Positions 16,231 to 55,604 of a stretch of 64,000 nucleotides of DNA are shown here, one piece after another. Source of the DNA: Eledone cirrhosa (Eukaryota); the NCBI GenBank assembly GCA_964016885.1, contig OZ024744.1, positions 59,396,001-59,460,000 on the forward strand, read 5' to 3'. The notes beneath the pieces were generated by a model, which ran no database searches, had not been told where the DNA came from, and was given only the letters and a program-made list of their open reading frames with translations. The stretch's first letter is position 1, and each line of letters starts with the position of its first letter. The position numbers and the translations under genes were made by a program.

Positions 16231-16299
16231 GTCTAACTTAATAGCACCACCTGGCGAAGTCTTTCAAATCAGGATTTGGACACCATGGCCCACTCAAGT

Positions 16300-20900
<4,601 letters not shown>

Positions 20901-24849: not shown

Positions 24850-25240
24850 GTGCCCCCCTCAACAACAGATGCCGCGAACGAAACGTGGTCTACCAGTGCA
24901 ACTTGAGAACGGAATACTCCATTAACCGCCTGCGAGTTTAAGACCCGGTATTACCAACACAACATTCATTTAGAAACCCGACTCGGTGACACGCGACAGC
25001 ACTTTCTGGCCATATTTGGGACCTCCAAGACAACAATATTACCTATTATCTAAGTTGGAGCATACTTTCCAAAGCAAAATCTTACTCGGGAGGACGCGGT
25101 CCGTGCAGTTTATGTTCGGAGGAAACGATCCAGATACTGTTTGCAAAGCACCTATTGTTAAGCAAAAAGGATGAACTCGTTACTTCGTGTAAACACAAAA
25201 TATATAGGACATATCTTACCTTCAAACCTCCTCACGACCC
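24850..25240 (+). pseudogene. Decayed Naiad-type PLE GIY-YIG endonuclease fragment
   Basis: PLNNRCRERNVVYQC at about 24855-24900 and ELVTSCKHK at about 25173-25199; frameshifted. Confidence 0.65.
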
Positions 25241-29841: not shown

Positions 29842-30319
29842 CATACACACAATCATACATATACACACACGTACATACACACACATACATACACACATAT
29901 ATACACGCATACATACGCATGCAAAAATATAGATATATGTACACACACCTACATACGCACACAAACAAATAATTATAAGAAAAAATATAATAATAAAAAT
30001 ACCGTCACATAAGAATAAAAAATAAATGTAAAAATTATTATAAAGTGACAGCGATACAGGCAACAAATAAATGAACAAACACACGTGGTAAGCAATACAC
30101 ACAATTGCACATACACATACATACATAAAAATAAATACATACACACACATACAATTACATATACACATATATATATACATACACATATACATACACACAC
30201 ACACATATATGTATGTATACATAGTATGTACACGTACATACATATATGTATACAGACGTACAGAAGTATGAATATATATATATATATATACATACATGCA
30301 CACATATATATACATACTT

Positions 30320-30800
30320 ATATTTAAGTAACAGCCGTACTAAGAGTGGGAAATGAAATTTCGTTTCATTTTTTCCCGTTTATCGTTTTCGGTGCACCCG
30401 GCCGATTAACCCACACGATATGCAAATTGGGCTACTCAGCCGTTAATATGCATAAGGTAAGTATATACGTTCAACAATCTGGCAGGAAGGTATACGTTGC
30501 TGACGATAGCTAATAAGCTTGAAACTAGTACAGCTTTCCTCACAAACGAGCAACGATGGTTGCTAGACACTACGGCTTAATACGGGATGTTTGTTTACAA
30601 ACACACGGATCATTATAATAAATGTTCGGCGAATCCATACGTACATATATATATGTGTGCATGTATATATATATACATACTACTGTACGTCTGTATACAT
30701 ATATGTATGTACGTGTACATACTTATATTTATTTATTATTTGTCGTATTCCCAACTTTTTATTTTTATATATATATAATATTTATGTATTTTCTTATATA
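30320..30800 (+). repeat. Single unit of the ~420-bp hammerhead repeat (ribozyme 30494-30536) with block-terminal tail
   Basis: Matches units at 34893-46572. Confidence 0.9.
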
Positions 30801-30947
30801 TATATGTGTGTGTGTATATGTATATATATATATGTATGTATAAATGAAGTAATTCCATCGGAAAAGTCCAGGAAAAAAGAGTGCTCTATGTAGGCAACAG
30901 AGCTTAATTATTATTATTATGTAATAAACAACATAAGGCAATTATTC

Positions 30948-31001
30948 CATTTACCAGTGGTTTCTTAAAAGCAAAAGGTTTTGCTTTCAATCCTCAGAAT
31001 G
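30948..31001 (-). ncRNA. Type I hammerhead (family B)
   Basis: Minus strand: catt CTGAGGA ttgaaagcaaaa-cc-ttttgcttttaa GAAA ccactgg TA aatg. Confidence 0.85.
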
Positions 31002-31265
31002 AAAAAATCCTGGTTTGTTTATTGAATTTGGATTACAAAAACAAAAATGCAATCTATATGAAAGTGAGGCAGGAGAAGGGAGAAGGAAAGGAAAAATAAA
31101 ATAAAACTACACATGCAAACACACACACAAAAAAACCCAAAAGCATACTTACACACACATACATATATACATATACACATATATATAAAACGTACACTTA
31201 CATACACACATACATATATACACACATATACACATACATACATTAATACATATACACACACACAC

Positions 31266-31297
<32 letters not shown>

Positions 31298-31322
31298 GCA
31301 TACACACACACATATATATATA

Positions 31323-31376
<54 letters not shown>

Positions 31377-31607
31377 CACACATACACACACATACACATG
31401 TGTGTGTACAAGCATACACATACACACACATACACATGTGTGTGTACAAGCATACACATACACAAACATAGCCATACACACACACATATATATACACATA
31501 CGTACATTCACACAAACATACAAAACGTACATACATACACATACATGAATCCACTCCTCTACATATTCACACACGCAAATAAATATAAGAAAAAATATAT
31601 ATATATA

Positions 31608-33962
31608 TTGTTATACTTTGGGAGGGTCATGTTGCCAATAAGAAACACATGCACCAGTTGCTTTCAATTCAATTTATTATATATTTATATATTTATAAAT
31701 TTATAAATTTACAAACCTATAAATTTCTGGTTGGTTGGTTGGTTCCACAACCAGATAGTTGTTTATATATAGTCATAGTCCTTTCGTCACACACACTGTG
31801 ACCTCTTCAGTGACTGGGGATTCCTTTCTTTGTTTCTGTGCCTTTCCTTTCTTCTATCCTACGCCATTTTGTTTCTGTGTGTGTGTTGTGTGCTCAGTTT
31901 GCGCATGCGCCACATCCGGGTGTCTGCGTGTGTTTGTGTTCATTTATCTATTTGTTTATTTATTTATTTATTTATTGTTGGTTGGTTGTTTGTTCTATGT
32001 GTGTGTGTGTTTTCATTTTGTCCTGTGTGTGTTTTCATTTTGTCCTTAATTGTAAGTTGTTTGTTCTATGTGTGTGTGTGTTTTCATTTTGTCCTGTGTG
32101 TGTTTTCATTTTGTCCTTAGTTGTAAGTTGTGATGTTGCTGTTCCACTCATATTTTCTATTTAATTTTGGTTTTAATTCTTTTATGCTTACTGCCGCTGT
32201 AATTTGCCTAAACATTGCGTCTTTTCTGTGTGTGGATTCTATTTTTATTTCTATGTTCTCTAATCTACCCCTGTGTTCTATCTTAGCATGTTGGTAGAGC
32301 ACAGATGATTCTTTATTATCTTGGAGGTCTCGCCAGTGTTCATTTATTCGTTCCCCTATACTACGAGCTGTCTCACCTATGTACACTATATTTTTGTTTC
32401 TACATTGTCCTTCAGTACATCTTATGCTATACACTACATTTCTAGTTTTACAGTTAATATGGGGGCTTATTTTATAGGTTATACATTTCTTATCTATACA
32501 TGAGGGTCTTTGGAACGAGTATGTCTTGCTAATAAGTGTTTTTACGGAGGTACCTGGTCTTTCTACTATCTTAATATTGAGATTATGTTTATTTAGGGCC
32601 CTTCTAAATTTGTAGGCTAGTTCGCCTCTAGGGGTTGTATTGATGAACATTACACTCTGGTATTTATTGCTATCATACCATGAGTTTATTCTATTGGCCT
32701 TGTTCCTAGTTCTTTCTATTCTATTCCAAAATTTGCTCCTATACAAGGGGCAGGTCCTATTTATGTCATTATTTACCATTTTTTCCCATTTGGTTCTGGC
32801 TCCTTTATACACTCTGATTCTATCTCTCTGATTGTAGCCAGAGAACTGCATACGGTGGATGAAGTGTTGTATGTGTCTCTCTAGTTCTTCGGGGTTGCAC
32901 ATGCGGGACACATTTCTCATCACCCGTACCAAATCCGCAATCAGTATGTTGATTTTGGTATGGTCCGAAATGGCCGAGTTTCGGTGGATCAGATGTTTGG
33001 AAGTCATGGGTTTGGCATAATGGGAAGAGGATTTGTTTTTGGTTGTTAATAGTATCTAACCAGAGCTCTGTGTCTAGTACAGGTAATCGATGGTTGGGGT
33101 GTCTACTTGGGTAGTCTATAGTAACTCTAATGCTCTGGTGGATGGAGTTTGCTATTTGCTGGATGCTTTCCATTGTGTTTTTCTCTAGTTCCTGACTGTT
33201 CTTTAGTGGGGGTGTCTTAACTACGATGTTTATATCATCTACGTAGCGGGAGTACATTATCAGGGTTAAGCTGTCTTCTAATTGTTCTTTAAGTTTTTGT
33301 TTAAGTCTACTGTCCCACCATACCATGAATAAGTTAGCTATGTCGCCTGCAATGCTAACACCAATTGCTGCTCCTTCCTCTTGGGCATATGTTTTACCAT
33401 TAAATTTGAACATATGTTCCTTAAGGGTTAATTTTATGCTGGCCCCTACCGCATGTGCAATCATTTTCTTCAGTTCATCGTGGTTTTCGGGTGTCCGTAT
33501 GGCTCTGGTCCACCCGTTCCATCTATCTGTGTGGGTTTTCTTGGCCATTGAGGTAATGGTAGGTGGTCTGCCTCTTGCTGGTCTTGTAGGGCACAGGTTA
33601 CTAAGGTCATAAGTGTTTAGGTAACTATTACTATGGGTAAGCTTAAGTAGAAGTCCCAGCTCACTGGTATCAATCCCACGGAACTCAACCTTGCTCTCGC
33701 TGATCATTTCTACGCATTTCTCCACAGCAAAATCCACGTCAATAGATGGATACAGGGACACAACATCCATACTGCCTATTATGCAGTTTGTTAGGTCCCC
33801 AGATCGGTTACCCGCGCCGATTCTGCTGAGGAGGTCCTCCGTGCTGTCACACATATCTGGGGACATCTCAATGATGGGGCGTATGATCAGGGAGAGGAAG
33901 TAGGACAGTCTGTAGTTACTAGCAATGTTAGCCCCACAGACTGGCCGTGTTGGTGGTCCCGC
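31608..33962 (-). mobile_element. Penelope-like retroelement (RT plus GIY-YIG), 5'-truncated, one frameshift, 3' end in (TA)n
   Basis: GSMDVVSLYPSI, GAAIG, SRYVDD, LPVLD; second frame CKTRNVVYSIRC..VYIGETARSIGERINEH..E..LN. Confidence 0.93.
31771..31815 (-). ncRNA. Minimal hammerhead in the PLE 3' pseudo-LTR (family C)
   Basis: Minus strand: agtca CTGAAGA g gtcac..gtgac GAAA ggac TA tgact. Confidence 0.8.
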
Positions 33963-34248
33963 AACAAAAAGAATATATGGGGGGGGGGGGGGCCTAAGAG
34001 GAGGTAACATATAAGGGGAGGTAAGGGAGAAAAACATTTAGTAAATATACAAGAGTACAGAAGGTAGAATCAGCAAAATAAAAACCGTAGCAAAAGTAAA
34101 GAGCAGAGAAGGAGTACAGGGCGGTTGATTTATCATAAGAGTGTCAATCCAGTTACAGATCAGATGCGATTTCAGATGAGGACAGCATCTGAAGATCTCA
34201 GTCTTTGAGTTAAAGCAAGCGGAAGTGGCTCTCAAGTTTAGCAGAATC

Positions 34249-34510
<262 letters not shown>

Positions 34511-34615
34511 AGAGTTAAACAAGATTCATATGAATACATCTAAGAATGAGTTTTACACATACATATGTGTGTGTATGTATTTGTATGTATATGTTTGTGT
34601 ATATGTATGTATATA

Positions 34616-34692
<77 letters not shown>

Positions 34693-34696
<4 letters not shown>

Positions 34697-36150
34697 GGAA
34701 AAAATGAAACAAAATTTCATTTCCCACTCTTAGTACGGCTGTTACTTAAATATAAGTATGTACACGTACATACATATATGTATACAGACGTACAGTAGTA
34801 TGTATATATATACATACATGCACACATATATATATGTACGTATGGATTCACCGAACATTTATTATAATGCTCGGTGTGTTTGTAAACAAACAAACCGTTT
34901 ATCGTTTTCGGTGAACCTGGCCGATTAACCCACTCGATATGCAAATTGGGCTACTCAGCTGTTAATATGCATAAGGTAAGTATATACGTTCAACAATCTG
35001 GCAGGAAGGTATACGTTGCTGACGATAGCTAATAAGCTTGAAACTAGTACAGTGTTCCTTTGTCAGTGTTGAACAAACGAGCAACGATGGTTGCTTGACA
35101 CTACGGCTTAATACGGGATGTTTGTTTACAAACACACCGAGCATTATAATAAATGTTCGGTGAATCCATACGTACATATATATATGTGTGCATGTTTGTA
35201 TATATATATATACATACTACTATACGTCTGTATACATATATGCATGTACGTGTACATACTTATATTTAAGTAACAGCCGTACTAAGAGTGGGAAATGAAA
35301 TTTCGTTTCATTTTTTCCGTTTATTGTTTTCGGTGCACCCGGCCAATTAACCCACTCGATATGCAAATTGGGCTACTCAGCGGTTAATATGCATAAGGTA
35401 AGTATATACGTTCAACAATCTGGCAGGAAGGTATACGTTGCTGACGATAGCTTAATAAGCTTGAAACTAGTACAGCGTTCCTTTGTCAGTGTTGAACAAA
35501 CGAGCAACGATGGTTGCTGGACACTCCGGCTTAATACGGGATGTTTGTTTACAAACACACCGAGCTTTATAATAAATGTTCGGTGAATCCATACGTACAT
35601 ATATATATGTGTGCCTGTATGTATATATATATATACATACTACTGTACATCTGTATACATAGATGTATGAATCTTTACATACTTATATTTAAGTAACAGC
35701 CGTACTAAGAGTGGGCAATGAAATTTCGTTTCTTTTTTTCCGTTTATCGTTTTCGGTGCACCCGGCCGTTTAACCCACTCGATATGCAAATTAGGCTCCT
35801 CAGCCGTTAATATGCATAAGGTAAGTATATACGTTCAACAATCTGGCAGGAAGGTATACGTTGCTGACGATCGCTAATAAGCTTGAAACTAGTACAGCGT
35901 TCCTAACAAACGAGCAACGATGGTTGCTAGACACTATGGCTTAATACGGGATGTTTGTTTACAAACACACCGAGCATTATAATAAATGTTCGGTGAATCC
36001 ATACGTACATATATATATGTTTGCATGTATGTATATATATATACATACTACTGTACGTCTGTACGTGCACATACTTATATTTATTTATTATTTGTCGTAT
36101 TCCCAACTTTTTATTTTTATATATATATAATATTATGTATTTTCTTATAT
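34693..36150 (+). repeat. Hammerhead repeat block: inverted head (34693-34892) plus 3 units (ribozymes at 35013, 35435, 35858) plus tail
   Basis: Unit spacing 422-423 bp; acgttg CTGACGA tagc-taataa-gctt GAAA ctag TA cagcgt. Confidence 0.92.
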
Positions 36151-36189
36151 ATATGTGTGTGTGTGTGTATATGTATATATATATATATG

Positions 36190-36228
<39 letters not shown>

Positions 36229-36233
<5 letters not shown>

Positions 36234-37417
36234 TAAACGGAATAGAAAATGCTGACAAATTGTTCACAGTTGAAAAATGGTTTAATTAGGAATAAAAGAG
36301 TACCACAACTGAATACTAACTCATACAATCACTAATACTCTTTTATTCCTAACTAGCAGTAAAGCCCGGCGTTGCTTGGGGTCGCTCAGTAGCTGTGTTA
36401 AAGTTACAATGTTAAGTTTCTTTTTTGGCTTAAAAACTGTAGTGTCTACTGTGTAGACTTGCATGTGGTGTTTTTGATTAATATTCCCTCAACCAACAAT
36501 ATGCCTTATGAAGTTAAGAAAACATAACGATAACCCGAATGTTATAACAAAAGAGGATGCTGGGGATAAAAACTGCACTGGTTATTTATTAACAAAGATC
36601 GAAAATGTAAACACTGCAACGCAGAGAAAAACATTAGCGTAACCAAATTATCAGTTATGTCTGTCTGCACGCCTATATCACCTCTCTGCACGACTATCTG
36701 TCTGCACGACTGTCTGTCTGCACGCGTATATCACCTCTCTGCACGACTATCTGTCTGCACGCGTATATCACCTCTCTGCACGACTGTCTGTCTTCACGCC
36801 TAACGAAATTTACAGATACATATATTTTAAATAAACTTATATAATTTTTGCTTTTTTTTACGAAATATTTGCTTGTTTTACGTAGTCTTTAAATAGACTT
36901 GTTTTCAAGTAAAAATATTGTTTTAAAAGGCTTTTAAATGGAAATGAAGCAAAACGGAAGCTTAGGGTTCGAACTGATGAATTTTGCAGGTCAAAATTTT
37001 GCTGGCTCGACAACTGTTCGTGTATTGTGTTAATGTCATTTTAAACGCTGAGAAAGCCAGCGTAATTTTTTTAATTTTTGCACGCAGAAAATGTAAACAG
37101 AACAAAGGGAAATAACTCGTCACTTACGCTCAAAAATCGATACATTAGATTCGATTTCGTCACATAGGGTGGGTCAATTTGAAATATTTTTTTCCGATGT
37201 CTTCGCTAGGGTTCAATGTACAAGTATAGCAATTTCGGTGCAATTCCGTCAGAGATTCTAAGAGGAGATGAGTGCCAAAAATCGATAGACAGACAGACAA
37301 CCACAGCTTTATATATATAGATTAAACCATTTTTCAACTGTGAACAATTTGTCAGCATTTTCTATTCCGTTTACCAATATATAATAACTTGTGTGTTACA
37401 CCTCTATTCTTTTAACT
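36229..37417. repeat. Fold-back element in (TA)n whose right arm is split by a Helitron
   Basis: 36229-36302 is the reverse complement of 36337-36352 joined to 37322-37380. Confidence 0.85.
36353..37321 (-). mobile_element. Non-autonomous Helitron
   Basis: Minus strand begins TCTATATATATAAAGCTG..(TGTC)n and ends with a hairpin (ccaagcaacgccggg) then CTAG; inserted at A|T with no TSD; internal tgtctgcacg minisatellite at 36658-36800. Confidence 0.9.
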
Positions 37418-37470
37418 ATATATATATATATATATATATATAATGTATAAAAATCAATACAATATAATTA

Positions 37471-37540
37471 CCTCATTACCAGAGGTTTCCCGAATGAGGC
37501 GAATACGAAAGAAACGTCTTCATTCGTTCGTCAGACGAGG
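37471..37540 (-). ncRNA. Type I hammerhead (family D) near a (TA)n-abutting end
   Basis: Minus strand: cctcgt CTGACGA acgaatgaag..cctcattcgg GAAA cctctgg TA atgagg. Confidence 0.8.
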
Positions 37541-38225
37541 CAATATAAAACATGGGTAAATACTTGGAAAGTCTCATCAAGAAAAGCAAAAAAACAAAAA
37601 AGATATAGACAAATTAATTAGAATATGAAATATATAATAATCTTTCAAGAAATATAGTTAGGTGTGTGTATATGTATGTATATACGCTCACAGATGTGCA
37701 TATTTGTGTATGCACATATGTATACGTATAGTGAAAAAATGTGCGTAAATATATAATTTAGGGCAAATGTATCTGTATGTCTGTAATCTACAGACAGAAT
37801 AGATACATCATAAGAGTATGAAGCCACGCGCATAAACACACCTACATACACGTACACTTAGATGCGGAAGTAAAAAAGGTAAGGGAGTGTAATAATTAAA
37901 GGAAAGTATCAATGTCGATATATTTATAAAAATGGAACAATAATTTAGAAAGAAAAAAATAAAGAAAAGAAGACAAACATACACACACACGTATATCACA
38001 CAAAAGAAACGCAAAATTATACATGCTTATATACACACGCACACTTACACATCCATACGTTCGATACGTACACACACACACGCACATACATACACTCACG
38101 CATATTGACCTGTTTGCATGCACACGCAAAAAAATGAGTAAGTAAAAAAAGGGGGAGAAGAATAAAGGAACAAAACATAAAACCTAGATGTAAAAAAGAC
38201 GGATATAAAGACACATACACATACG

Positions 38226-38288
<63 letters not shown>

Positions 38289-38527
38289 GCACGCGCGCGA
38301 ACAAACATAGTCGCTCATGTACATATATAGAAAGTATACACACATTAAGGCGTTCAGCCACATTGATACAGGGTGTAAAAAACTTGTGGATAAGTAAGTA
38401 CAAATATAAAATTGTACGATTGGCTGCGCAAAAATAAAAAATAGAAAGAAAGAAAAAAATATATCTGGTGTGGAAAACGCAAATGACAAGTATAATAAGT
38501 TAGTGAGGGAAATAGGGAAGTAAAAAA

Positions 38528-39460
38528 TGCACACATATATATATGTACGTATGGATTCACCGAACATTTATTATAAAGCTCGGTGTGTTTGTAAACAAAC
38601 AAACAAACAAACCGTTTATCGTTTTCGGTGAACCCGGCCGATTAACCCACTCGATATGCAAATTGGGCTACACAGCCGTTAATATGCATAAGGTAAGTAT
38701 ATACGTTCAACAATCTGACAGGAAGATATACGTTGCTGACGATAGCTTAATAAGCTTGAAACTAGTACAGCGTTCCTTTGTCAGTGTTGAAAAAACGAGC
38801 AACGATGGTTGCTTGACACCACGGCTTAATACGGGATGTTTGTTTACAAACACACCGAGCTTTATAATAAATGTTCGGTGAATGCATACATACATATGTA
38901 TATGTGTGCATGTATGTTTATATATATACATACTACTGTACGTCTGTATACATATATGTATGTACGTGTACATACTTATATTTAAGTAACAGCCGTACTA
39001 AGAGTGGGAAATGAAATTTCGTTTCATTTTTTACGTTTATCGTTTTCGGTGCACCCGGCCGATTAACCCACTCGATATGCAAATTGGGCTACTCAGCGGT
39101 TAATATGCATAAGGTAAGTATATACGTTCAACAATCTGGCAGGAAGGTATACGTTGCTGACGATAGGTAATAACTTGTAACTAGTACAGCGTTACTAACA
39201 AACGAACAACGATGGTTGCTAGACACTACGGCTTAATACGGGATGTTTGTTTACAAACACACCGAGCATTATAATAAATGTTCGGTGAATCCATACGTAC
39301 ATATATATATGTGTGCATGTATGTATATATATATACATACTACTGTACGTCTGTATACATAGATGTATGTACGTGTACATACTTATATTTATTTATTATT
39401 GGTCGTATTGCCAACTTTTTATTTTGATATATATATAATATTTATGTATCTTCTTATATG
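38528..39460 (+). repeat. Hammerhead repeat block: partial inverted head plus 2 units (ribozymes at 38730 and 39151, the latter mutated) plus tail
   Basis: Unit spacing 421 bp. Confidence 0.9.
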
Positions 39461-39482
39461 TATGTGTGTGTGTGTGTATATA

Positions 39483-39521
<39 letters not shown>

Positions 39522-39663
39522 TTAAGAGTTAAACAAGATTCATATGAATACATCTAAGAATGAGTTTTACACACATACATATGTGTGTGTATGTATTTGT
39601 ATGAATGTTTTTGTGTATATGTATGTATGTATGTATATATGTATATATATATATATATATATA

Positions 39664-41136
39664 TACATTATGAAGAGAGAAGAAACATTTAGATATAATT
39701 AGTAATAAAATGTATCATACCTAAACTGCTCCTAAATTCCTCGACTACGTAGTTTCGTGGCATAAACAAAAACAATATATCAAAGATATAGAGTCCTTGC
39801 GAGGTCTGCCAACTTATCAAGAGGATACCTCATTTTACTAGTCTCAAGAACGCGTCTACACGACGTGAGAAAGAATCCCAAAAGGCGGAGGGGGAGATAG
39901 TCACGCGATATAACGGTCGAGAAACAGAGCTAAGCCTCTTATAACCACGAAGAAAATACCACGGAGGCGGAGGGGGTATTCATATCGAGGCCGTAGAAGA
40001 GGTAGTGAAGAAGGCGAGAAGTATGAGTAATGGAAGCTTTCCAGTTGTCCCCACACTTCAAAGATTGCTCGACCAGAGGGAGTTATTAATATATTTAGAA
40101 ACACACAGATACATGCGGACACACACATATATACATGAATGCATCCGCACCCAACTGTGAGTTAAGGGTGCCAACTTCACCGATGTTGCTCAATGAATGA
40201 CTGGGACAGACCAATTCAGTTTGAACCAGACTGAACCAGTATCAGAGTTAAAAATACATTATGAAGAGAGAAGAAACATTTAGATATAATTAGTAATAAA
40301 ATGTATCATACCTAAACTGCTCCTAAATTCCTCGACTACGTAGTTTCGTGGCATAAACAAAAACAATATATCAAAGATACAGAGTCCTTGCGAGGTCTGC
40401 CAACTTATCAAGAGGATACCTCATTTTACTAGTCTCAAGAACGCGTCTACACGACGTGAGAAAGAATCCCAAAAGGCGGAGGGGGAGATAGTCACGCGAT
40501 ATAACGGTCGAGAAACAGAGCTAAGCCTCTTATAACCACGAAGAAAATACCACGGAGGCGGAGGGGGTATTCATATCGAGGCCGTAGAAGAGGTAGTGAA
40601 GAAGGCGAGAAGCATGAGTAATGGGAGCTTTCCAGTTGTCCCCACACTTCAAAGATTGCTCGACCAGAGGGAGTTATTAATATATTTAGAAACACACAGA
40701 TACATGCGGACACACACATATATACGTTATATCGCGTGACTATCTCCCCCTCCGCCTTTTGGGATTCTTTCTCACGTCGTGTAGACGCGTTCTTGAGACT
40801 AGTAAAATGAGGTATCCTCTTGATAAGTTGGCAAACCTCGCAAGGACTCTATATCTTTGATATATTGTTTTTGTTTATGGCACGAAACTACGTAGTCGAG
40901 GAATTTAGGAGCAGTTTAGGTATGATACATTTTATTACTAATTATATCTAAATGTTTCTTCTCTCTTCATAATGTATTTTTAACTCTGATACTGGTTCAG
41001 TCTGGTTCAAACTGAATTGGTCTGTCCCAGTCATTCATTGAGCAACATCGGTGAAGTTGGCACCCTTAACTCACAGTTGGGTGCGGATGCATTCATGTAT
41101 ATATGTGTGTGTCCGCATGTATCTGTGTGTTTCTAA
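39664..41136 (-). mobile_element. Non-coding PLE-type element: 591-bp tandem repeat (39664-40254, partial 40255-40724) plus inverted copy (about 40727-41136), in (TA)n
   Basis: Duplicated pseudo-ORFs 39901 and 40492 offset by 591 bp; third copy is the reverse complement. Confidence 0.9.
39738..39825 (-). ncRNA. Hammerhead with U3:A8 core (family E); further copies 40329-40416 (minus) and 40815-40902 (plus)
   Basis: tcctc TTGATAA gttggca..tgccac GAAA ctacgtag TC gagga; palindromic stem III ACTACGTAGT. Confidence 0.8.
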
Positions 41137-41143
41137 ATATATA

Positions 41144-41196
<53 letters not shown>

Positions 41197-41200
<4 letters not shown>

Positions 41201-41830
41201 GGAAAAAATGAAACGAAATTTCATTTCCCACTCTTAGTACGGCTGTTATTTAAATATAAGTATGTACACGTGCATACAGATATGTATACAGACATACAGT
41301 AGTATGTATATATATATACATACATGCACACATATATATATGTAGGTATGGATTCACCGAACATTTATTATAAAGCTCGGTGTGTTTGTAAACAAACAAA
41401 CCGTTTATCGTTTTCGGTGAACCCGGCCGTTTAACCCTCTCGATATGCAAATTGGGCTACTCAGCCGTTAATATGCATAAGGTAAGTATATACGTTCAAC
41501 AATCTGGCAGGAAGGTATACGTTGCTGACGATAGCTAATAAGCTTGAAACTAGTACAGCGTTCCTAACAAACGAACAACGATGGTTGCTAGACACTACGG
41601 CTTAATACGGGATGTTTGTTTACAAACACACCGAGCATTATAATAAATGTTCGGTGAATCCATACGTACATATATATATGTGTGCATGTATGTATATATA
41701 TATATACATACTACTGTACGTCTGTATACATATATGTATGTACGTGTACATACTTATATTTATTTATTATTTGTCGTATTCCCAACTTTTTATTTTTATA
41801 TATATATAATATTTATGTATTTTCTTATAT
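41197..41830 (+). repeat. Hammerhead repeat block: inverted head plus 1 unit (ribozyme at 41519) plus tail
   Basis: Same head, unit and tail as 34693-36150. Confidence 0.9.
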
Positions 41831-41870
41831 ATATGTGTGTGTGTGTGTGTATATGTATATATATATATAT

Positions 41871-41941
<71 letters not shown>

Positions 41942-42044
41942 AGAGTTAAACAAGATTCATATGAATACATCTAAGAATGAGTTTTACACACATACATATG
42001 TGTGTGTATGTATTTGTCTGTATATGCTAGTGTATATGTATGTA

Positions 42045-42109
<65 letters not shown>

Positions 42110-42113
<4 letters not shown>

Positions 42114-45100
42114 GGAAAAAATGAAACGAAATTTCATTTCCTACTCTTAGTACAGCTGTTACTTAAATATAAGTATGTACACGTACATACAGATATGTAT
42201 ACAGACGTACAGTAGTATATATATATATATATATATATACATACATGCACACATATATAAATGTACGTATGGATTCACCGAACATTTATTATAAAGCTCG
42301 GTGTGTTTGTAAACAAACAAACAAACAAACCGTTTATCGTTTTCGGTGAACCCGGCCGATTAACCCACTCGATATGCAAATTGGGCTACTCAGCCGTTAA
42401 TATGCATAAGGTAAGTATATACGTTCAACAATCTGACAGAAAGATATACGTTGCTGACGATAGCTAATAAGCTTGAAACTAGTACAGCGTTCCTTTGTCA
42501 GTGTTGAACAAACGAGCAATGATGGTTGCTGGACACTACGGCTTAATACGGGATGCTTGTTTACAAACACACCGAGCATTATAATAAATGTTCGGTGAAT
42601 CCATACGTACATATATATATGTATACCTGTATGTATATATATATACATACTACTGTACGTCTGTATACATATATGTATGTACGTGTACATACTTATATTT
42701 AAGTAACAGCCGTACTAAGAGTGGGAAATGAAATTTCGTTTCATTTTTTCCGTTTATCGTTTAAGGTGCACCCGGCCGATTAACCCACTCGATATGCAAA
42801 TTGGGCTACTCAGCCGTTAATATGCATAAGGTAAGTATATACGTTCAACAATCTGGCAGGAAGGTATACGTTGCTGACGATAGCTAATAAGCTTGAAACT
42901 AGTACAGCGTTCCTTTGTCAGTGTTGAACAAACGAGCAACGATGGTTGCTTGACACTACGGCTTAATACGGGATGTTTGTTTACAAACACACCGAGCATT
43001 ATAATAAATGTTCGGTGAATCCATACGTACATATATATATGTGTGCATGTATGTATATATATATATACATACTACTGTACGTCTGTATACATATATGTAT
43101 GTACGTGTACATACTTATATTTAAGTAACAGCCGTACTAAGAGTGGGAAATGAAATTTTGTTTCATTTTTTCCGTTTATCGTTTTCGGTGCACCCGGCCG
43201 ATTAACCCACTCGATATGCAAATTGGCCTACTCACCGGTTAATATGCATAAGGTAAGTATATACGTTCAACAATCTGGCAGGAAGGTATACGTTGCTGAC
43301 GATAGCTTAATAAGATTGAAACTAGTACAGTGTTCCTTTGTCAGTGTTGAACAAACGAGCAACGATGGTTGCTGGACACTACGGCTTAATACGGGATGTT
43401 TGTTTACAAACACACGGAGCATTATAATAAATGTTCGGTGAATCCATACGTACATATATATATGTGTGCATGTATGTATATATATATACATACTACTGTA
43501 CGTCTGTATACATATATGTATGTACGTGTACATACTTATATTTAACTAACAGTCGTACTAAGAGTGGGAAATGAAATTTCGTTTCATTTTTTCCGTTTAT
43601 CGTTTTCGGTGAACCCGGCCGATTAACCCATTCGATATGCAAATTGGGCTACTCAGCCTTAATATGCATAAGGTAAGTATATACGTTCAACAATCTGGCA
43701 GGAAGGTATACGTTGCTGACGATAGCTAATAAGCTTGAAACTAGTACAGCGTTCCTTTGTCAGTGTTGAACAAACGAGTAACGATGGTTGCTGGACACTA
43801 CGGCTTAATACGAGCTGTTTGTTTACAAACACACCGAGCATTATAATAAATGTTCGGTGAATCCATACGTACATATATATATGTATGCCTGCATGTATAT
43901 ATATATACATACTACTGTACGTCTGTATACATATATGTATGTACGTGTACATACTTATATTTAAGTAACAGCACTACTAAGAGTGGGAAATGAAATTTCG
44001 TTTCATTTTTTCCGTTTATCGTTTACGGTACACCCGGCCGATTAACCCACTCGATATGCAAATTGGGCTACTCAGCCGTTAATATGCATAAGGTAAGTAT
44101 ATACGTTCAACAATCTGTCAGGAAGGTATACGTTGCTGACGATAGCTAATAAGCTTGAAACTAGTACAGCGTTCCTTTGTCAGTGTTGAACAAACGAGCA
44201 ACGATGGTTGCTTGACACTACGGCTTAATACGGGATGTTTGTTTACAAACACACCGAGCATTATAATAAATGTTCGGTGAATCCATACGTACATATATAT
44301 ATGTGTGCATGTATGTATATATATATATATACATACTACTGTACGTCTGTATACATATATGTATGTACGTGTACATACTTATATTTAAGTAACAGCCGTA
44401 CTAAGAGTGGGAAATGAAATTTTGTTTCATTTTTTCCGTTTATCGTTTTCGGTGCACCCGGCCGATTAACCCACTCGATATGCAAATTGGCCTACTCAGC
44501 GGTTAATATGCATAAGGTAAGTATATACGTTCAACAATCTGGCAGGAAGGTATACGCTGCTGACGATAGCTTAATAAGCTTGAAACTAGTACAGTGTTCC
44601 TTTGTCAGTGTTGAACAAACGAGCAACGATGGTTGCTGGACACTACGGCTTAATACGGGATGTTTGTTTACAAACACACGTAGCATTATAATAAATGTTC
44701 GGTGAATCCATACGTACATATATATATGTGTGCATGTATGTATATATATATACATACTACTGTACGTCTGTATACATATATGTATGTACGTGTACATACT
44801 TATATTTAAGTAACAGCCGTACTAAGAGTGGGAAATGAAATTTCGTTTCATTTTTTCCGTTTATCGTTTTCGGTGAACCCGGCCGATTAACCCATTCGAT
44901 ATGCAAATTGGGCTACTCAGCCTTAATATGCATAAGGTAAGTATATACGTTCAACAATCTGGCAGGAAGGTATACGTTGCTGACGATAGCTAATAAGCTT
45001 GAAACTAGTACAGCGTTCCTTTGTCAGTGTTGAACAAACGAGTAACGATGGTTGCTGGACACTACGGCTTAATACGAGCTGTTTGTTTACAAACACACCG

Positions 45101-45295
45101 AGCATTATAATAAATGTTCGGTGAATCCATACGTACACATATATATATGTGTGCATGTATGTATATATATATATACATACTACTGTACGTCTGTATACAT
45201 ATATGTATGTACGTGTACATACATATATTTTTTTTATTATTTGTCGTATTCCCAACTTTTTATTTCTATATATATATAACATTTATGTATTTTCT

Positions 45296-45300
<5 letters not shown>
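42110..45300 (+). repeat. Hammerhead repeat block: inverted head plus 7 units (ribozymes at 42448, 42868, 43290, 43710, 44130, 44554, 44974) plus tail
   Basis: Spacing 420-424 bp; catalytic core conserved in all seven. Confidence 0.93.
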
Positions 45301-45332
<32 letters not shown>

Positions 45333-45348
45333 ATATATATATATATAT

Positions 45349-45405
<57 letters not shown>

Positions 45406-45502
45406 AGAGTTAAACAAGATTCATATGAATACATCTAAGAATGAGTTTTACACACATACATATGTGTGTGTATGTATTTGTCTGTATATGCTTGTGTATA
45501 TG

Positions 45503-45577
<75 letters not shown>

Positions 45578-45581
<4 letters not shown>

Positions 45582-46572
45582 GGAAAAAATGAAACGAAAT
45601 TTCATTTCCCACTCTTAATACGGTTGTTACTTAAATATAAGTATGTACACGTACATACATATATGTATACAGACGTACAGTAGTATGTATATATACATAC
45701 ATGCACACATATATATATGTACGTATGGATTCACCGACATTTATTATAAAGCTCGGTGTGTTTGTAAACAAACAAACAAACAAACCGTTTATCGTTTTCG
45801 GTGAACCCGGCCGATTAACCCACTCGATATGCAAATTGGGCTACTCAGCCGTTAATATGCATAAGGTAAGTATATACGTTCAACAATCTGGCAGAAAGGT
45901 ATACCTTGCTGACGATAGCTAATAAGCTTGAAACTAGTACAGCGTTCCTTTGTCACTGTTTAACAAACGAGCAACGATGGTTGCTGGACACTACGGCTTA
46001 ATACGGGATGCTTGTTTACAAACACACCGAGCATTATAATAAATGTTCGGTGAATCCATACGTACATATATATATGTATGCCTGTATGTATATATATATA
46101 CATACTACTGTACGTCTGTATACATATATGTATGTACGTGTACATACTTATATTTAAGTAACAGCCGTAGTAAGAGTGGGAAATGAAATTTCGTTTCATT
46201 TTTTCCGTTTATCGTTTACGGTGAACCCGGCCGATTAACCCACTCGATATGCAAATTGGGCTACTCAGCCGTTAATATGCATAAGGTAAGTATATATGTT
46301 CAACAATCTGGCAGGAAGGTATACGTTGCTGACGATAGCTAATAAGCTTGAAACTAGTACAGCGTTCCTTTGTCAGTGTTGAACAAACGAGCAACGATGG
46401 TTGCTGGACACTACGGCTTAATACGGGATTTCTGTTTACAAACACCGATCACTATAATAAATGTTTGGTGAATCCATACGTACATATATATATATATGTG
46501 TGCATGTATGTATGTATATATACATACTACTGTACGTCTGTATACGTATATGTATGTACGTGTACATACTTA
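45578..46572 (+). repeat. Hammerhead repeat block: inverted head plus 2 units (ribozymes at 45903, 46323)
   Basis: Spacing 420 bp; ends in (TA)n. Confidence 0.9.
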
Positions 46573-46576
46573 TCTA

Positions 46577-46613: not shown

Positions 46614-47605
46614 CGAAGGAAATGTGGTAAGGAACCAGGTGGACCATAACGCACCAAAGTACTCAATACTTGAGGTAGTAGAGTGGGTAATAGGAACCAG
46701 TAAGACCCCGACAGCTGAGCTCAAGCCGTTTCGACGGCTAATTCTGGACTAAATGAACATTTATCCTGGTATTTAAATAGCCGATCTTCTCAAGGGGTAA
46801 TTCCATATATGGTCAAAGTGATTGTCAAAAATCAGTAGTAATTCTGTGGTTGCAAATTAGTAGGGGAGATGGTGGCTAAACCTGCCAGTAGGAGAAAGAG
46901 GGGAGGGGGTGGAGTAGACCCAATCAAGAGTTGGTAGTGCCAGCTACAGCTGGGCATGAGGTCAAAGAAGATACAGGGGAGGGGGAGGGGGAGGAAGTCG
47001 GAACGGTAGGTAGAACAATGGGGGGTAGAAATAGGAAAGAAAAAATACTGAGAGTGAAGAAAAGCAAATAAGTGTAAAGAAAAAAGTAAAGTAAATTAAA
47101 TTCTACGACCTAGGTGTCAGGCTATTGTTAGGCGAGAATAAAATAAAGAAAGATTATTTTATTCTCGCCTAACAATAGCCTGACACCTAGGTCGTAGAAT
47201 TTAATTTACTTTACTTTTTTCTTTACACTTATTTGCTTTTCTTCACTCTCAGTATTTTTTCTTTCCTATTTCTACCCCCCATTGTTCTACCTACCGTTCC
47301 GACTTCCTCCCCCTCCCCCTCCCCTGTATCTTCTTTGACCTCATGCCCAGCTGTAGCTGGCACTACCAACGCTTGATTGGGTCTACTCCACCCCCTCCCC
47401 TCTTTCTCCTACTGGCAGGTTTAGCCACCATCTCCCCTACTAATTTGCAACCACAGAATTACTACTGATTTTTGACAATCACTTTGACCATATATGGAAT
47501 TACCCCTTGAGAAGATCGGCTATTTAAATACCAGGATAAATGTTCATTTAGTCCAGAATTAGCCGTCGAAACGGCTTGAGCTCAGCTGTCGGGGTCTTAC
47601 TGGTT

Positions 47606-47609
<4 letters not shown>
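46610..47609 (-). mobile_element. Near-perfect fold-back element (arms about 46690-47146 and 47154-47609, tail 46610-46689) in (TA)n
   Basis: About 455-bp arms with a roughly 7-nt loop; one hammerhead per arm. Confidence 0.92.
47502..47595 (+). ncRNA. Hammerhead with U3:A8 core (family F); mirror copy 46705-46798 on minus
   Basis: acccc TTGAGAA gatcggcta..tagccgtc GAAA cggcttgagctcagctg TC ggggt. Confidence 0.82.
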
Positions 47610-47644
<35 letters not shown>

Positions 47645-47646: not shown

Positions 47647-48189
47647 CGTTTCTGAATTTGTTTAGCAAGATTCTTTATCTGAAATCGTGTGTTGAAACCG
47701 ATATTGTTATACTTTGGGAGGGTCATGTTGCCAATAAGAAACACACGCACCAGTTGCTTTCATTTCAATTTATTATGTATTTATAAATTTACAAATTTAT
47801 AAATTTCTTGCTGGTTGGTTGGTTCCACAACCAGATAGTTGTTTATATATAGTCATAGTTCTTTCGTCACACACTCTGTGACCTCTTCAGTGACTGGGGA
47901 TTCCTTTCTTTGTTTCTGTGCCTCTCCTTTGTTCCGTCCTACGCCATTTTCTGGCGTACGACAGAACAAAGGAAAGGCACAGAAACAAAGAAAGGAATCC
48001 CCAGTCACTGAAGAGGTCACAGAGTGTGTGACGAAAGAACTATGACTATATATAAACAACTATCTGGTTGTGGAACCAACCAACCAACCAGAAATTTATA
48101 AATTTGTAAATTTATAAATACATAATAAATTGAAGTGAAAGCAACTGGTGCGTGTGTTTCTTATTGGCAACATCACCCTCCCAAAGTAT

Positions 48190-48197
<8 letters not shown>
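47645..48197 (-). mobile_element. Fold-back pseudo-LTR of the PLE family at 31608-33962 (arms about 47701-47946 and 47952-48197, tail 47645-47700)
   Basis: Matches 31606-31870; hammerheads at 47851-47895 (minus) and 48003-48047 (plus): agtca CTGAAGA ggtcac..gtgac GAAA gaac TA tgact. Confidence 0.9.
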
Positions 48198-49928: not shown

Positions 49929-51239
49929 CCTTGTAATGTTAATAGAAAAATGAATACGTGCTGTATGATAAAGTTCCTATGGTGGTCATTAAAGTTTGTT
50001 TTGATTGGTGGATTAATTCATAGGGATGTTATTGCCTGTAGTGTATGTGGGGGGTGGGGGGTGATAAGTTGGTGGTGACGGTCGCAGGTTGAAGTGGGCT
50101 GTGGTGTGGGGGTGCTGGTTATTGGTAGACAGTTTGGCATGTAGATGTGGCTGATTTTTGTGTGTGGTATGGGTGTGGTGTTGTTGTTTGTGATAAAGAT
50201 GAAAGGTTGAGGTGTTTATGGTGGTGTGATGATTGTGTTTGTGGTGTCATTTCCATAAGGAGATACATAGACACACTTAGTCTGACAAATACGTTGTATA
50301 CATACACACGTGTATATATATAGAACCACTGGAGATGGCGTTGTACACATATACTTACACACAGACACACACACATGCGTTGTTTAGGGCGGGATGATAT
50401 GTGTTGGTGATGTTGATGATTGTTGAAATATGGAGATGTGCCTGGTGGTGGTGGTGGTGGTGGGTGCGACAAAATATTTACAGGATCGAATTTTACGATG
50501 GATTACAGGTCAAAAAAGGACATAGGGAACACGGGGGGTGGGGAACAAGGTTGTGAATAAGGGATGGTGGACGTATGGCGATGTGTTTGGTGGTGGGGGT
50601 GATTTGTTCGACATTATATTTACAGGATCGGATGTTACAATGGGTTACAAGTTAAAACCTGACAGAGAAGACACCTAGAACACAATGTTACTGGGATGAG
50701 GGATGTATGGCGATGTGTCTGTTGGTGGGGTGATGGGTGTGACATGATATTTACAAAATCTGAACTTCCAAAGGGTTACATGTTATATAATTCAAATGCA
50801 CTGAGATGAGGGACGGCGTGGCAAGGCAAAGGTAGTTATCACTATGTTGAGTCAGGGTTAGTGTGTGGCCCTCGGCCGAATATTTGTGCAGAGAAGGTGG
50901 TCATCCTGGTGTGTCTACAATTTATAATTATGTCAGACCTAGAGTTTATCGCAGATTTCAATTTAATTATCTCAGCCGCCTCGGCCAGGCATAACCTGCA
51001 GTGGTTTCTGTCGCTGGGGAGTTGGGCCACACGTCTTTTAACTGACCATTTGATCTGGAATTCGATGTTCTTGTCTTTGAGGTCCCAGATCAAGTCCGCC
51101 AGTCTAGTTTGGGATCGTTTGAGCCTGTGTTTAAAGGAGCTTATGCGGTTATACCAGCGCTCCTTAAACGTAGTCGATGTCGCACCTATATAGGAGTACT
51201 CTTTTCTGCCAGCTGTGACATCGCACCGGTAAATAATGT

Positions 51240-51629: not shown

Positions 51630-54600
51630 CCACCCTCTGCTTAGACTGGAAAGCAGTCGATAAAAATGAGGAGGTCTGCAAAGGTAACATAAGTCATGCA
51701 AAGCAAATACAAAAATGAGGAAAAAAGGGAAAAAAGAATAATTCATATGTAAATTGTTTTACAAAGTTTCTTGGGCCAATGGACCTGACCTGACGACCAC
51801 TACGAATTGTCGTGATGTATATTGAAGGTAAAGGAGTGTTTGTATGTGATTGTGGTGTTTGCGGTGGTGCTTGTATTGACACATTGTAGGAGGGGGGAGT
51901 ATGAGGCTCTGGTGTGAGAGCATCTGTGTAGGCCCGCTTCAATCTGTCAATAGAGAGTGTGTCTTTATGTCCATTAATGTCAATGGCGAAATGTTTATCT
52001 GTACGTACAAGTACACGATAGGGTCCAGAATAAGGTGGAGTGAGAGGACTTCTCACTGCGTCATTTCTGACAAAACATGGGTCCACGAGGCAATGTCCCT
52101 CGGAACCGAAGATTTAATGGTTTGTTGCCTAGTGTTCATAGGAGGCAGGACTTGAAAATACGCACGCAAACGGGTCACATATAGTGTAGGGTCCTGAGTA
52201 GCAAGGTCAACTAGGGCAAGCATCTGCCCAGGAAGAGATAATGTAGTGCCATACAAAAGCTCAGCTGGAGAGAATCCAAGGTTCTCTTGCATTGAAGTGC
52301 GGATACCGAGTAATACTATGGGGAGGTAGTTGCTCCAATGTAGAGTATCCAGATAGGCACGCAATGCGGTCTTTAACTGGCGATGAAAACGTTCTACCAT
52401 TCCATTAGATGCACGGTGGTAACTTGTAGTCCTGATGCGTTGAGCGCCGATGATATTCGATAGATCCCTGAAAAGTTGGGATTCAAACTGCCTACCACGA
52501 TCTGTAGTAATAGTGGTAGGAACCCCATAGCGCGATATCCATCCTGAAACCAGGGCTCGCGCTACAGATTCAGCAGTAATGTCACTAAGAGGAATGGCTT
52601 CAGGCCATCGGGTGAAACGGTCAATACAGGTCAGGATGTATGAACATCCACGACTGGCAGGCCAAGGTCCCACGATATCAATGTGTATGTGGCAAAAACG
52701 TGCGTCAGGTGTGCTAAATGTGCCGACAGGTGCGCGAATATGTTTATGCACCTTCGACTTTTGACAAGATAAACAGGAACGTGACCAAGCAGTGATATCA
52801 CTTCTCATATTCGGCCAGAAGAATCTAGCTGAAATGAGTTTCACTGTGGCGGAAATTCCGGGGTGTGCCAAACTATGTAGAGAATCGAAAACTATTCGAC
52901 AATGAGTCTCTGGTACCAGAGCGCGAGGTGAATCTGTCGCAGTATCACACAGAATCTGAGAGTCCGAAGTGGGTACAGGCAGGTATTTAAATTTGCAGGT
53001 TGCAAATTCAGGTGAAGACAGATCCAACGACTCTAGGGTGGGCTGTTCTGCAGCCACAAGATGCAAGTCAACAGTCGCAGGTGCTGACAAAGCATTGATG
53101 GGTAGGCGAGATAAGGCATCCGACGCTGTGTTTTGATCACCCGGTATATGACGAATGTCATTCGTAAACTGGGATATGAAGTCCAAGTGACGAGTTTCTT
53201 TGTCCGGATTGAAACTGCGTGCGAACGTAAGTGGACGATGGTCAGTATAGATCGTAAACTGTTGGCCTTCCAGTGAATGCCGAAACTGTTTCACAGCAAG
53301 GAAAATTGTTAACAGTTCGCGGCCGAAGGTGCTATAGCGAGATTCGGCAGGCTTCAGGTGCTTAAAAAAGAAAGCAAGAGGTTGAAGCTGTTGTTGGTGG
53401 TTCTGCTGCAATACTGCACCTACCTCAGTGCTTGATGTATCAACAACCAGCGAAAACTGGGCACCAGACACAGAGTGAGCAAGCAGTGATGCGTTTGCTA
53501 AATTCTGTTTAGCTTTGGAGAATGCTTCAAGTTGAATGGGTCCCAAAGCGACTGGCTCGTTCTTCTTCTACGCAGGAGATCAGATAGTGGGGTTAAGAGT
53601 TCTACGCAATGCGGCATAAACCTAGGATAATAATTTAGGAAGCCTAGGAACTGCCACAGCTGTCGCAAAGAAGTAGCCTTCACTTTCTCAGGAAGTGGGA
53701 ATGTTCCCTCAGAGTTTATCACGTGGCCTAAAAAGACGAGTGAAGCAGCGCCAAAAATACACTTCGCAGGGTTAATGCGAACTTGGTACTGCCTAAATCG
53801 TTCAAACAGTTGGCGGAGGTGCGAGATATGGTCCTCCGGTGAAGCACTCGCGATGAGAATATCGTCGATGTAGCAGTATACAAAATCCAGGTCGCGGACG
53901 ACTTCGTCCATAAATCGCTGAAAGGTACTAACAGCATTGCGTAGTCCAAAAGGCATTGTTAAAAACTCGAATGCACCGAAAGGTGTAGTGAGAGCAGTTT
54001 TAGGAATGTCTGCAGGATTCACATGAATTTGATGGTATGCTCTCTGATCAGGCCCAATTTTGAAAAGATAGTACATCCATGAAGCGAAGAAGTGAAATCC
54101 TGGATGTGAGGAATTGGGTAACGGTCCGGCACGGTGATCGAATTTAATCGCTGAAACTCTCCAGTGGGATGCCAGTCTCCCGAATGTTTCGGCACCATGT
54201 GCAAAGGCGAGGCCCACGGACTGGAAGAAAGGCGAATGATACCCAACTGCAGCATATGGTTAAACTCTGCCTTAGCCGCTTTCAATTTTTCCGGAGCAAA
54301 GCGACGCGGGCGTGAATAAATGGAGCACCCTTAGTCTCAATAAAATGTTTGGTAGAGTGAGTAGGGGTATCTACCAGAAAGTTCAGGTTCGTTAATTCCG
54401 GAAAGGAATGCAAAGGCGTATGATACGGGTCATCCGAAGCAGCGATGTAGAAGACTGGACTGATAGGCTGGATTACAGACGTACGTCCAAGCGCAGAAAG
54501 ATTCGTAGTTGCGTCCAATAAACGACATGTCCGCATATCAACCATAAGATTGAAATGATGCAAAAAATCAGCACCCGGAATAGGATATGACAAATCAGCT

Positions 54601-55604
54601 ATGGTGAAAATCAATAAGAAATCTCTACGTAAATCCAGGTCTAAAGAGCGAGAGATTTGTCCATAAGTAGGGATAGCTGAATGGTTTATAGCTTGTAGTG
54701 ATATGTGTGAGAGAGGAGGTTTCTCTTTCAAGAGTTTTAACGGCCAAATGCTGCAAGACGCACCCGTGTCGACGAGGCAGTGTGCATGCGAGAAGGAATC
54801 CGTAATGAAAAATGCACGACTTTCAGTACTGAATTGCGAAGAAGACGTCGTGCTTAATTCTCCGTTACTTCGTTTCCCCGGAGTAAAAAGGAACAAGGCT
54901 GGATACATTTATGAGCAGAGGTTCCGAAACGGTTATGGTAAACGCATGCTCGCGATGGTGAAGGTTGGAAACGACGACGTGAAGAATTCGAGCGATTCCG
55001 CGACCGTTGTCGGGGAGATCTCGATCTGGATAAACGAAGAAGTTGTACCTCCTTCGTAAGGTCAAGGATGGCTTTTAGTGTTTCTTCGTTGGTCGAAGTG
55101 GCGCTGGCTGAAACTGATGCGACAGGAAAAGGTGAATCATTTGTTGCAAGTCGTGATGGGGTAGTAGTGGTCGAATTGCCGGAGTACTCCAAAATGTTAT
55201 CAGTGGATGACGCCAACTGATCCACCGAACTGGTTTCGGTCATCGCTGCTAAAATGGCCTGAACATTAGGCGGCAGCCTAGAGAAGAAAAGGTGCGTGAT
55301 CATGGCGCTGTCGGCCGGTGCGTCTTCCGCCAGCTCTCTCATCCTCCGTAAGAGCTGTGTAGGTGTATAGTCGCCAAGGTGCACATCGTTAACTAGAGTG
55401 CGAAACTTCCTTTCCGCCGAGACAGAAGTGCGGTTAATAATTTCTTTTTTTATGCAGCTATAGGTCGCCTCCGCAGCCGGGTTGGGAATTAAGAGAACGA
55501 ATGTGAGATTGACCATGTATTCATACGCAACTTCCCATTGGTCAGTTTGACCTTATTACGTATGAAAATGTTGCTATTGCGAGGTGCGACGTAGTTCCAC
55601 TACA
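51240..55604 (-). mobile_element. Ty3/Gypsy LTR retrotransposon, decayed (gag, PR, RT, RH, IN), with TSD AATGT
   Basis: LVDTGA; SSPWASPLHMV, PDRYPIP, MPFGL, YIDD; HHCC and [19 protein letters not shown]; GPY/F; PPT at 51630-51641; TSD at 51235-51239 and 55605-55609. Confidence 0.96.

Follow-up and report, generated by a model that had tools for sequence, protein, structure and literature searches.

A dispersed family of U3:A8 hammerhead repeats in Eledone cirrhosa with two fixed 3' ends and probable Penelope-like mobility

The window analyzed here, a 64,000-nucleotide stretch of the Eledone cirrhosa genome (assembly GCA_964016885.1, contig OZ024744.1, positions 59,396,001 to 59,460,000 of the forward strand), contains one insertion of a young, dispersed family with about 7,000 hammerhead motifs. 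This family is probably a non-coding, non-autonomous retroelement (non-LTR retrozyme) that depends for its mobility, in the cycle proposed below, on the reverse transcriptase-endonuclease of a Hydra-clade Penelope-like element. Its thousands of young copies point to two sharp rules: one start site is used per arm of an insertion, and all units of an insertion come from one monomer.

The insertion (locus L003) occupies positions 39663..41142 of the window and consists of two head-to-head arms, with both outer ends in (TA)n. Arm 1 (39663..40725, minus strand), which has the ribozyme sense, is 1,063 nt or 1.8 units long; its 5' end lies at unit position 200 and its 3' end, at 39663, is the fixed site S1 (+80 from the predicted cut). 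Arm 2 (40725..41142, plus strand) is inverted and 418 nt long; its 5' end lies at unit position 419 and its 3' end, at 41142, is the fixed site S2 (+245 from the predicted cut). The arms are joined head to head at 40725. The direct repeat of 591 nt and the inverted arm of 418 nt are real, with 99-100% identity between copies. The left (TA)n target tract is found at 39640..39662 and the right one at 41143..41197, where it adjoins an inverted arm of an older 420-bp hammerhead family. Two paralogous copies of the flanks (41979-42110 and 45443-45578) are empty sites with plain (TA)n at this place, which identifies 39663-41142 as an insertion; any target-site duplication would be masked by insertion into (TA)n. 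The initial annotation had described a 591-bp tandem-plus-inverted element at 39738..40902 within the (TA)n of the neighboring family. Its repeat structure and its target are borne out, and its boundaries move outward to those given above.

Exactly three U3:A8 hammerhead motifs were found by a descriptor scan of the window, the same three that had been recognized initially: motif A (39738..39825, minus strand; U3 at 39820, A8 at 39815, predicted cut after 39743), motif B (40329..40416, minus strand; predicted cut after 40334), and motif C (40815..40902, plus strand; predicted cut after 40897). Each contains a perfect 5-bp stem I, the core UUGAUAA, GAAA, C17, and a 10-nt palindromic stem III (ACUACGUAGU). 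The predicted ribozyme is a type I hammerhead with a Watson-Crick 3-8 pair (U3:A8) and a G10.1-C11.1 stem II. A stem II had been listed for all three copies; in motif C one pair of it is lost through a G for C at 40880. Motifs A and B represent two consecutive tandem units, each with a type I hammerhead, and lie 591 nt apart. As had been proposed, they bracket a predicted 591-nt monomer between two predicted cleavage sites (39743..40333, minus strand), which would be released and circularized from the window element. The unit is non-coding (longest ATG frame, 75 codons), has a GC content of 41.6%, and contains two GC-box-like 10-mers at positions 359 and 441. In an Rfam scan (E<=1), no hammerhead family was found among the 150 of 261 matches listed; the matches among those listed were rejected as microRNA-type noise from hairpins and microsatellites.

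By folding, the palindrome forms a duplex of -12.9 kcal/mol and no hairpin alone, as expected for a ribozyme working as a dimer. Folding of the monomer favors the inactive form by 1.6 kcal/mol. As a circle, the 591-nt unit folds at -173 kcal/mol vs. -134 +/- 6 kcal/mol in 30 shuffles (z -6.2); its hairpins are conserved between subfamilies, and in 4 of the 61 pairs both partners differ. An alternative pairing is open to the 3' strand of stem I, with sequence immediately downstream of the cut (unit positions 1-71), and the same re-pairing is possible in the 5' region of a Hydra-clade element discussed below (L156:1750-1805). Such re-pairing, for which the alignment fold gives a weak signal, could inactivate the ribozyme after transcription or circularization.

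Genome-wide, a loose motif pattern gave 7,430 matches in 3.0 Gb, with 2 matches for the control. The 19-nt U3:A8 core pattern had 7,083 exact matches vs. none for the reversed control, and thus the motif is not due to chance. With 1.85-2.4 motifs per locus, this corresponds to roughly 3,000-4,000 insertions. Many copies are 99-100% identical to the window unit. The window's own subfamily, set apart by the bulged base of stem II, accounts for 771 matches in the genome. Identity to the window unit drops to 72-95% in older subfamilies, and between the oldest of these and a sister subfamily it is only 65-71%. About 7,000 hammerheads of this family are invisible to CUGANGA searches.

The expectation that U3:A8 would preserve the 3-8 pair agrees with the genome, in which 7,083 of 7,111 cores have U3:A8. 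The remaining 28 carry a single change, either at position 3 (14 cores: 8 C, 4 G, and 2 A, every one with A8) or at position 8 (14 cores: 8 G, 4 U, and 2 C). All 28 are unpaired at 3-8, and no C3:G8 copy of the family was found genome-wide. Each position is changed in 0.20% of cores, vs. a within-locus unit disagreement of 0.21% (147/70,521). In 16 of the 18 loci with at least two scored cores, the change is confined to one unit; in the other two, a position-8 change is present in both tandem units (L201, U3:U8; L203, U3:G8). These single changes are post-insertion decay at the background rate and not paired change. The initial annotation had set paired against random change at positions 3 and 8 as a genomic test; within the family the test is ill-posed, and its outcome is neither paired change nor refutation. 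The core is rare but no surprise and not new: several natural U3:A8 hammerheads are already published, with in vitro activity cited (Perreault, 2011, PMC3088659), and about 1,300 U3-A8 motifs are described in association with Schistosoma Penelope elements (Cervera and de la Pena, 2014, PMC4209133).

Selection, initially claimed for activity, finds support at the level of the fold in comparisons between subfamilies. In the young subfamilies 384 of 591 unit sites are invariant, so little can be learned from the constancy of positions 3 and 8 among them. A hand count of 45 sister-subfamily motifs, with positions 3, 7, and 8 left free, gave U3:A8 in 42, G3:A8 in 2, and U3:G8 in 1, with N7 being A in 21, G in 20, and U in 4. 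Among 17 chosen rows, 96.6% of cells are paired and 7 of 19 pairs are changed on both sides, counts that are inflated by related rows, come from loci retrieved with patterns fixing part of the motif, and reflect largely one subfamily split counted many times. The both-side changes are located in stem I, stem II, the stem II extension, and the palindrome (two palindrome pairs in the sister subfamily); the register of stem II varies between subfamilies, and only its first two pairs were counted. Overall, the core is kept and the stems covary over roughly 35-45% cumulative divergence, with N7 and the stem II bulge varying freely. On these alignments, retention of U3:A8 together with a free N7 and covarying stems supports selection for the fold.

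Candidates for a C3:G8 ancestor, 34 matches in all, were rejected: 33 trace to a look-alike motif that the sister subfamily carries upstream, and 1 is a chance upstream match. The look-alike is intact in only 13 of 34 similarity-selected rows of this subfamily and was therefore not counted as a second core. At L206:1501-1520 and L216:1500-1520, the U3:A8 half core is preceded by a canonical-looking half core, about 12 nt upstream, that has its own partial stem I strand. Speculatively, this preceding half core may be left over from a duplication that made the paired change possible.

The anatomy of the insertions was analyzed in two sets: set 1 comprised 80 loci of one contig (C1) in listed order, and set 2 comprised 44 loci chosen by high similarity, array length, or core variant, including the window locus. 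Measured from the predicted cut, S1 covers +72-86 (mostly +80) and S2 covers +235-253 (mostly +245). Of the 136 arms in set 1, 128 have their 3' end at one of these two sites, and 113 of the 128 continue directly into TA; the 5' ends of arms are scattered. Both sites are located about 10 nt past a long predicted hairpin. Among the head-to-head pairs of both sets, 72 of 80 combine S1 with S2, 1 uses the same site twice, and 7 have an end elsewhere (46, 0, and 6 in set 1; 26, 1, and 1 in set 2). One S1+S2 pair is a local duplicate, which leaves 71 pairs after its removal. The lengths of the two arms of a pair are uncorrelated (rho 0.10, p 0.40). Arms are up to 4.5 kb long, with several cut sites read through without scars, and arrays reach 14 copies of a site per insertion. 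The 5' ends are about three times denser around the cut, within a 36-nt window chosen after inspection of set 1 (18 vs. 34 in set 1 and 9 vs. 18 in set 2, the second figure of each being for 200 nt of flank, about six times wider). Such enrichment would be expected if some templates were cleaved linear RNA or if the polymerase stalls at this point. The family shows 5' truncation, partial tandems, an adjacent inverted 5'-truncated copy, and extension at one end only. Seen across the genome, the window locus is one of thousands of Penelope-type insertions, and its inverted copy belongs to the way in which they insert; neither point can be read from a single window.

The comparison of variants took in sites covered at least 3 times per locus and arms with at least 93% identity to the window unit, and it left out L006, L052, L117, and L128 as cut, double, misaligned, or duplicated. 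Of the variants private to one locus, judged against about 120 loci out of some thousands in the genome, 17 (15 events) were found in all units and 61 in a single unit, with 3 in between, in some units. Twelve of the 17 all-unit variants span both arms. At L180 one private variant is present in 14 of 14 units, and at L192 four variants are present at 7-8 of 7-8. A variant starts in one unit, yet fills arrays; the arrays must therefore have been rebuilt repeatedly from one unit. Arms of the same locus diverge by 0.42% vs. 1.79% for different loci, and in only 9 of 49 loci is the partner arm strictly closer than every other haplotype, with 24 ties and 16 cases in which it is not the nearest. Older arrays are heterogeneous unit by unit. 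Taken together, the distribution of variants suggests one monomer template per insertion, most likely a circle, and rolling around this circle would be the simplest route to the arrays. Two observations are not explained by a simple circle: a variant tract common to two units on opposite arms at L180, and a variant in 2 of 5 units at L033. Related retrozymes are reported to be expressed as circles in coral (PMC7229834). None of the sequencing runs listed is recorded as RNA. Two runs of unrecorded kind each yielded one self-closing contig (591 or 590 nt, depth 8), which was rejected as a sign of circles, since low-level tandem DNA would assemble alike.

A possible source of the enzymatic machinery was found through an ORF beside one 591-nt copy, which led to an abundant Hydra-clade family of Penelope-like elements, several of them with full open frames. 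Out of 112,494 first-look candidates, the 84 matches that were scored had 92-98% identity. The intact 817-aa protein has RWR, DKT, and CxCX5C motifs and a C-terminal YIG endonuclease motif, and it is by these motifs that we assign it to the Hydra clade; a 521-aa part of it had no match in Pfam. The element carries its own C3:G8 hammerhead with an 8-nt palindrome and ends at about +64 or +199, in (TA)n. Among 20 loci, all six insertions with both ends visible use one site per arm, i.e., the same two-site rule as in the 591-nt family. At least several other Hydra families are present in this genome at about 45% identity. Beyond low-complexity stretches, no similarity of the 591-nt unit to the examined Hydra family was found in 12 loci, and no 591-nt copy contiguous with an ORF, nor any autonomous parent, was found among the loci fetched. 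Hydra ORFs beside some 591-nt copies were considered as a parent and rejected as separate insertions in the same TA tracts. The missing similarity lowers the case for 'derived from' and not that for 'works like'. The helper likely belongs to the Hydra clade, and the family described here is a candidate for it.

Other repeats are also found around the insertion. The 420-bp family (window 30232-46573) has 14 canonical C3:G8 motifs with a 6-nt palindrome. Its inverted arm has two different ends (unit 217 and 273), and the same arm junction recurs at least four times, which indicates one old insertion amplified locally with its flanks as a higher-order repeat. Every other repeated hammerhead family encountered in the fetched DNA has a C3:G8 core; one 420-bp copy, at L191:1601 (minus strand), has U3 and G8. 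Further type I hammerheads with C3:G8, which differ in their palindromes and form at least eight families, were found in TA tracts of the fetched loci (e.g., in L044, L080, L118, L122, L133, L154, L163, and L166), and the genome is very rich in them. Broken Hydra-clade ORF pieces, 34-51% identical to the intact 817-aa protein, are located at window positions 12229-14438 (minus), 24855-25229 (plus), 50893-51237 (minus), and 55784-56551 (minus). Two overlapping frames at 32120-34037 (minus), with a weak RVT_1 match, belong to another reverse-transcriptase family that is also found at L039, L041, and L046. Several frames at 52056-55552 (minus) resemble gag-pol pieces of an LTR retrotransposon, and the segments at 1511-2188, 4208-5557, 10093-11136, and 15136-17943 are presumably LINE-like reverse-transcriptase fragments. 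Two inverted repeats were found at 46690-47610 and 47701-48197: the first is perfect and 457 nt long, with a 7-nt spacer, and the second is 97% identical and 246 nt long, with a 5-nt spacer; part of the second recurs at 31605-31870.

The proposed cycle takes as its basis what can be read from the genome, namely the copy number, the (TA)n target, the two fixed 3' ends with one site per arm, the uniform units, the ribozyme covariation, and the same end rule in the autonomous Hydra element. A tandem transcript would be cut by hammerheads acting as dimers through the palindrome, and the 591-nt monomer would be closed to a circle. The helper protein would then cut a (TA)n tract, and cDNA would be primed from both DNA ends at +80 and +245 of the same RNA, one site per end. 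Each polymerase would roll around the template for a variable distance, and the two incomplete cDNAs would be joined head to head over an overlap of a few bases; alternatively, one arm alone would be joined to the target. Transcription, cleavage, circularization, the identity of the helper, and the order of events are the steps that we infer. A wider reading, put forward tentatively as a real possibility, is that Penelope-like integration is two-headed and asymmetric: one protein complex would hold one RNA at two stem-loop-marked sites, each broken DNA end would be primed at a different one, and on a circle made by the ribozyme both heads would roll and produce whole arrays in one step. Priming of each DNA end at a different site would explain why inverted insertions have a tail at only one end. 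If the two-headed reading is true, this genome would hold its cleanest natural record, with both a U3:A8 retrozyme and an intact helper.

Three other explanations have to be weighed against this cycle. With the same helper and two-site priming, the template could be a linear multimer that escaped cleavage, or RNA transcribed from a DNA circle outside the chromosomes; the ribozyme would only trim transcripts, and the uniformity of arrays would come from young sources or from DNA-level conversion and unequal crossover. Scar-free passage of arms through several cut sites fits this explanation, as do the L180 tract and the L033 variant. In the anole element, hammerhead mutants are reported to insert normally in vitro with unprocessed RNA as the main substrate (PMC11167929), and local amplification by unequal crossover was proposed for retrozyme arrays (10.64898/2026.07.22.740005). 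We nevertheless consider a linear template unlikely, as the 15 events fixed in all units, with 12 sites across inverted arms, would need repeated one-unit bottlenecks, the heterogeneity of older arrays indicates that post-insertion homogenization of DNA is weak, and 5' truncation would shorten the arrays at each round, yet the arms reach 4.5 kb.

An inverted arm could also arise by self-priming (fold-back), possibly on an antisense template, rather than by priming from both DNA ends. This is the published model for rotifer Penelope elements, drawn from palindromes at inverted junctions (PMC3846280), and the junctions between arms in our loci mostly overlap by a few bases, overlaps of 1-14 nt being common. 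The 5' ends of the two arms lie within 15 nt of each other in 7 of 71 pairs, which is close to the permuted mean of 3.8 (p 0.08). Since 22 of 71 pairs have arms of which neither includes the whole of the other, and since the 5' ends are not reliably close, the second arm does not appear to be a fold-back copy of the first; moreover, fold-back itself does not give one S1 end and one S2 end. Its role in forming the inverted arms is accordingly very doubtful. Similarly improbable, and slightly more so in our judgment, is that the hammerhead is an inactive relic on a Penelope-type non-autonomous repeat, with U3:A8 as a founder accident. The 28 unpaired changes with no C3:G8 relative, the inactive form favored by monomer folding, and the weak in vitro cleavage reported for minimal Penelope hammerheads (PMC4209133) are in line with a relic. 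It is opposed by the core and covarying stems maintained across the subfamilies while N7 and the stem II bulge drift, and by single changes that accrue at the decay rate, mostly within one unit.

The kind of element, its U3:A8 core, and its one-sided tail are already known; the 591-nt family adds unusually clear genomic evidence on the mechanism. In the literature, the origin of Penelope-like tandem and inverted structures and the role of retrozyme circles as transposition templates are described as open (PMC8557442, PMC11167929, 10.64898/2026.07.22.740005). The two rules and the intact candidate enzyme of this genome make both questions directly testable in vitro. Neither a one-site-per-arm count nor an argument from shared private variants to a monomer template was found in searches of an open-access library; subscription papers and supplements may hold either, or this family itself.

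Metazoan non-LTR retrozymes (Cervera and de la Pena, 2020, PMC7229834; 10.64898/2026.07.22.740005) resemble the window family in having non-coding tandem units with a type I hammerhead, a GC content below 50%, a well-folded predicted circle, and co-occurrence with Penelope-like elements. The window family differs in its U3:A8 core, its stem II region of about 57 nt, and its 10-nt palindrome; its 591-nt unit is above the range of 150-450 nt in one source (PMC7229834) and within that of 51-972 nt in the other (10.64898/2026.07.22.740005). Its short dispersed arrays, inverted arms, and two fixed ends were not found described for these retrozymes in the accessible text of either source. No parent pLTR was found for the window family. 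A 2026 preprint (Li et al., 10.64898/2026.07.22.740005) connects retrozymes with Penelope-like elements, suggests that the arrays arise by local DNA amplification, and describes the mechanism as unresolved; in the same work, no cleavage was seen for 8 of 9 Xenopus retrozyme dimers.

The minimal Cercyon hammerheads of Penelope-like elements in Schistosoma mansoni, with about 1,300 matches (PMC4209133), share with the window family the U3-A8 covariation, a short stem I, a dimer-type stem III, and motifs close together on opposite strands. As described there, Cercyon motifs are heterogeneous and mostly single, whereas the window family is near-identical, young, and arranged in tandem monomer units. 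The Penelope pattern combines partial tandems with a truncated copy in inverted orientation and a one-sided tail (PMC8557442, PMC3846280). Hydra-clade elements (Craig et al., 2021, PMC8557442) combine a (TA)n target, a hammerhead near the end, 5' truncation, partial tandems, an inverted 5'-truncated copy, and extension at one end only, as does the window family; the 591-nt element differs in having no ORF and a 'tail' of 165 nt rather than 30-40 nt. Finally, the anole element Poseidon cuts AT-rich DNA and extends both strands in vitro (Frangieh et al., 2024, PMC11167929), using two internal start sites of reverse transcription downstream of the hammerhead that match genomic ends, which fits the ends of the 591-nt family. 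In the available account of Poseidon, there is no strand difference in the start site and the ribozyme is dispensable; the 591-nt family, in contrast, uses one site per arm, and its arrays point to a monomer template.
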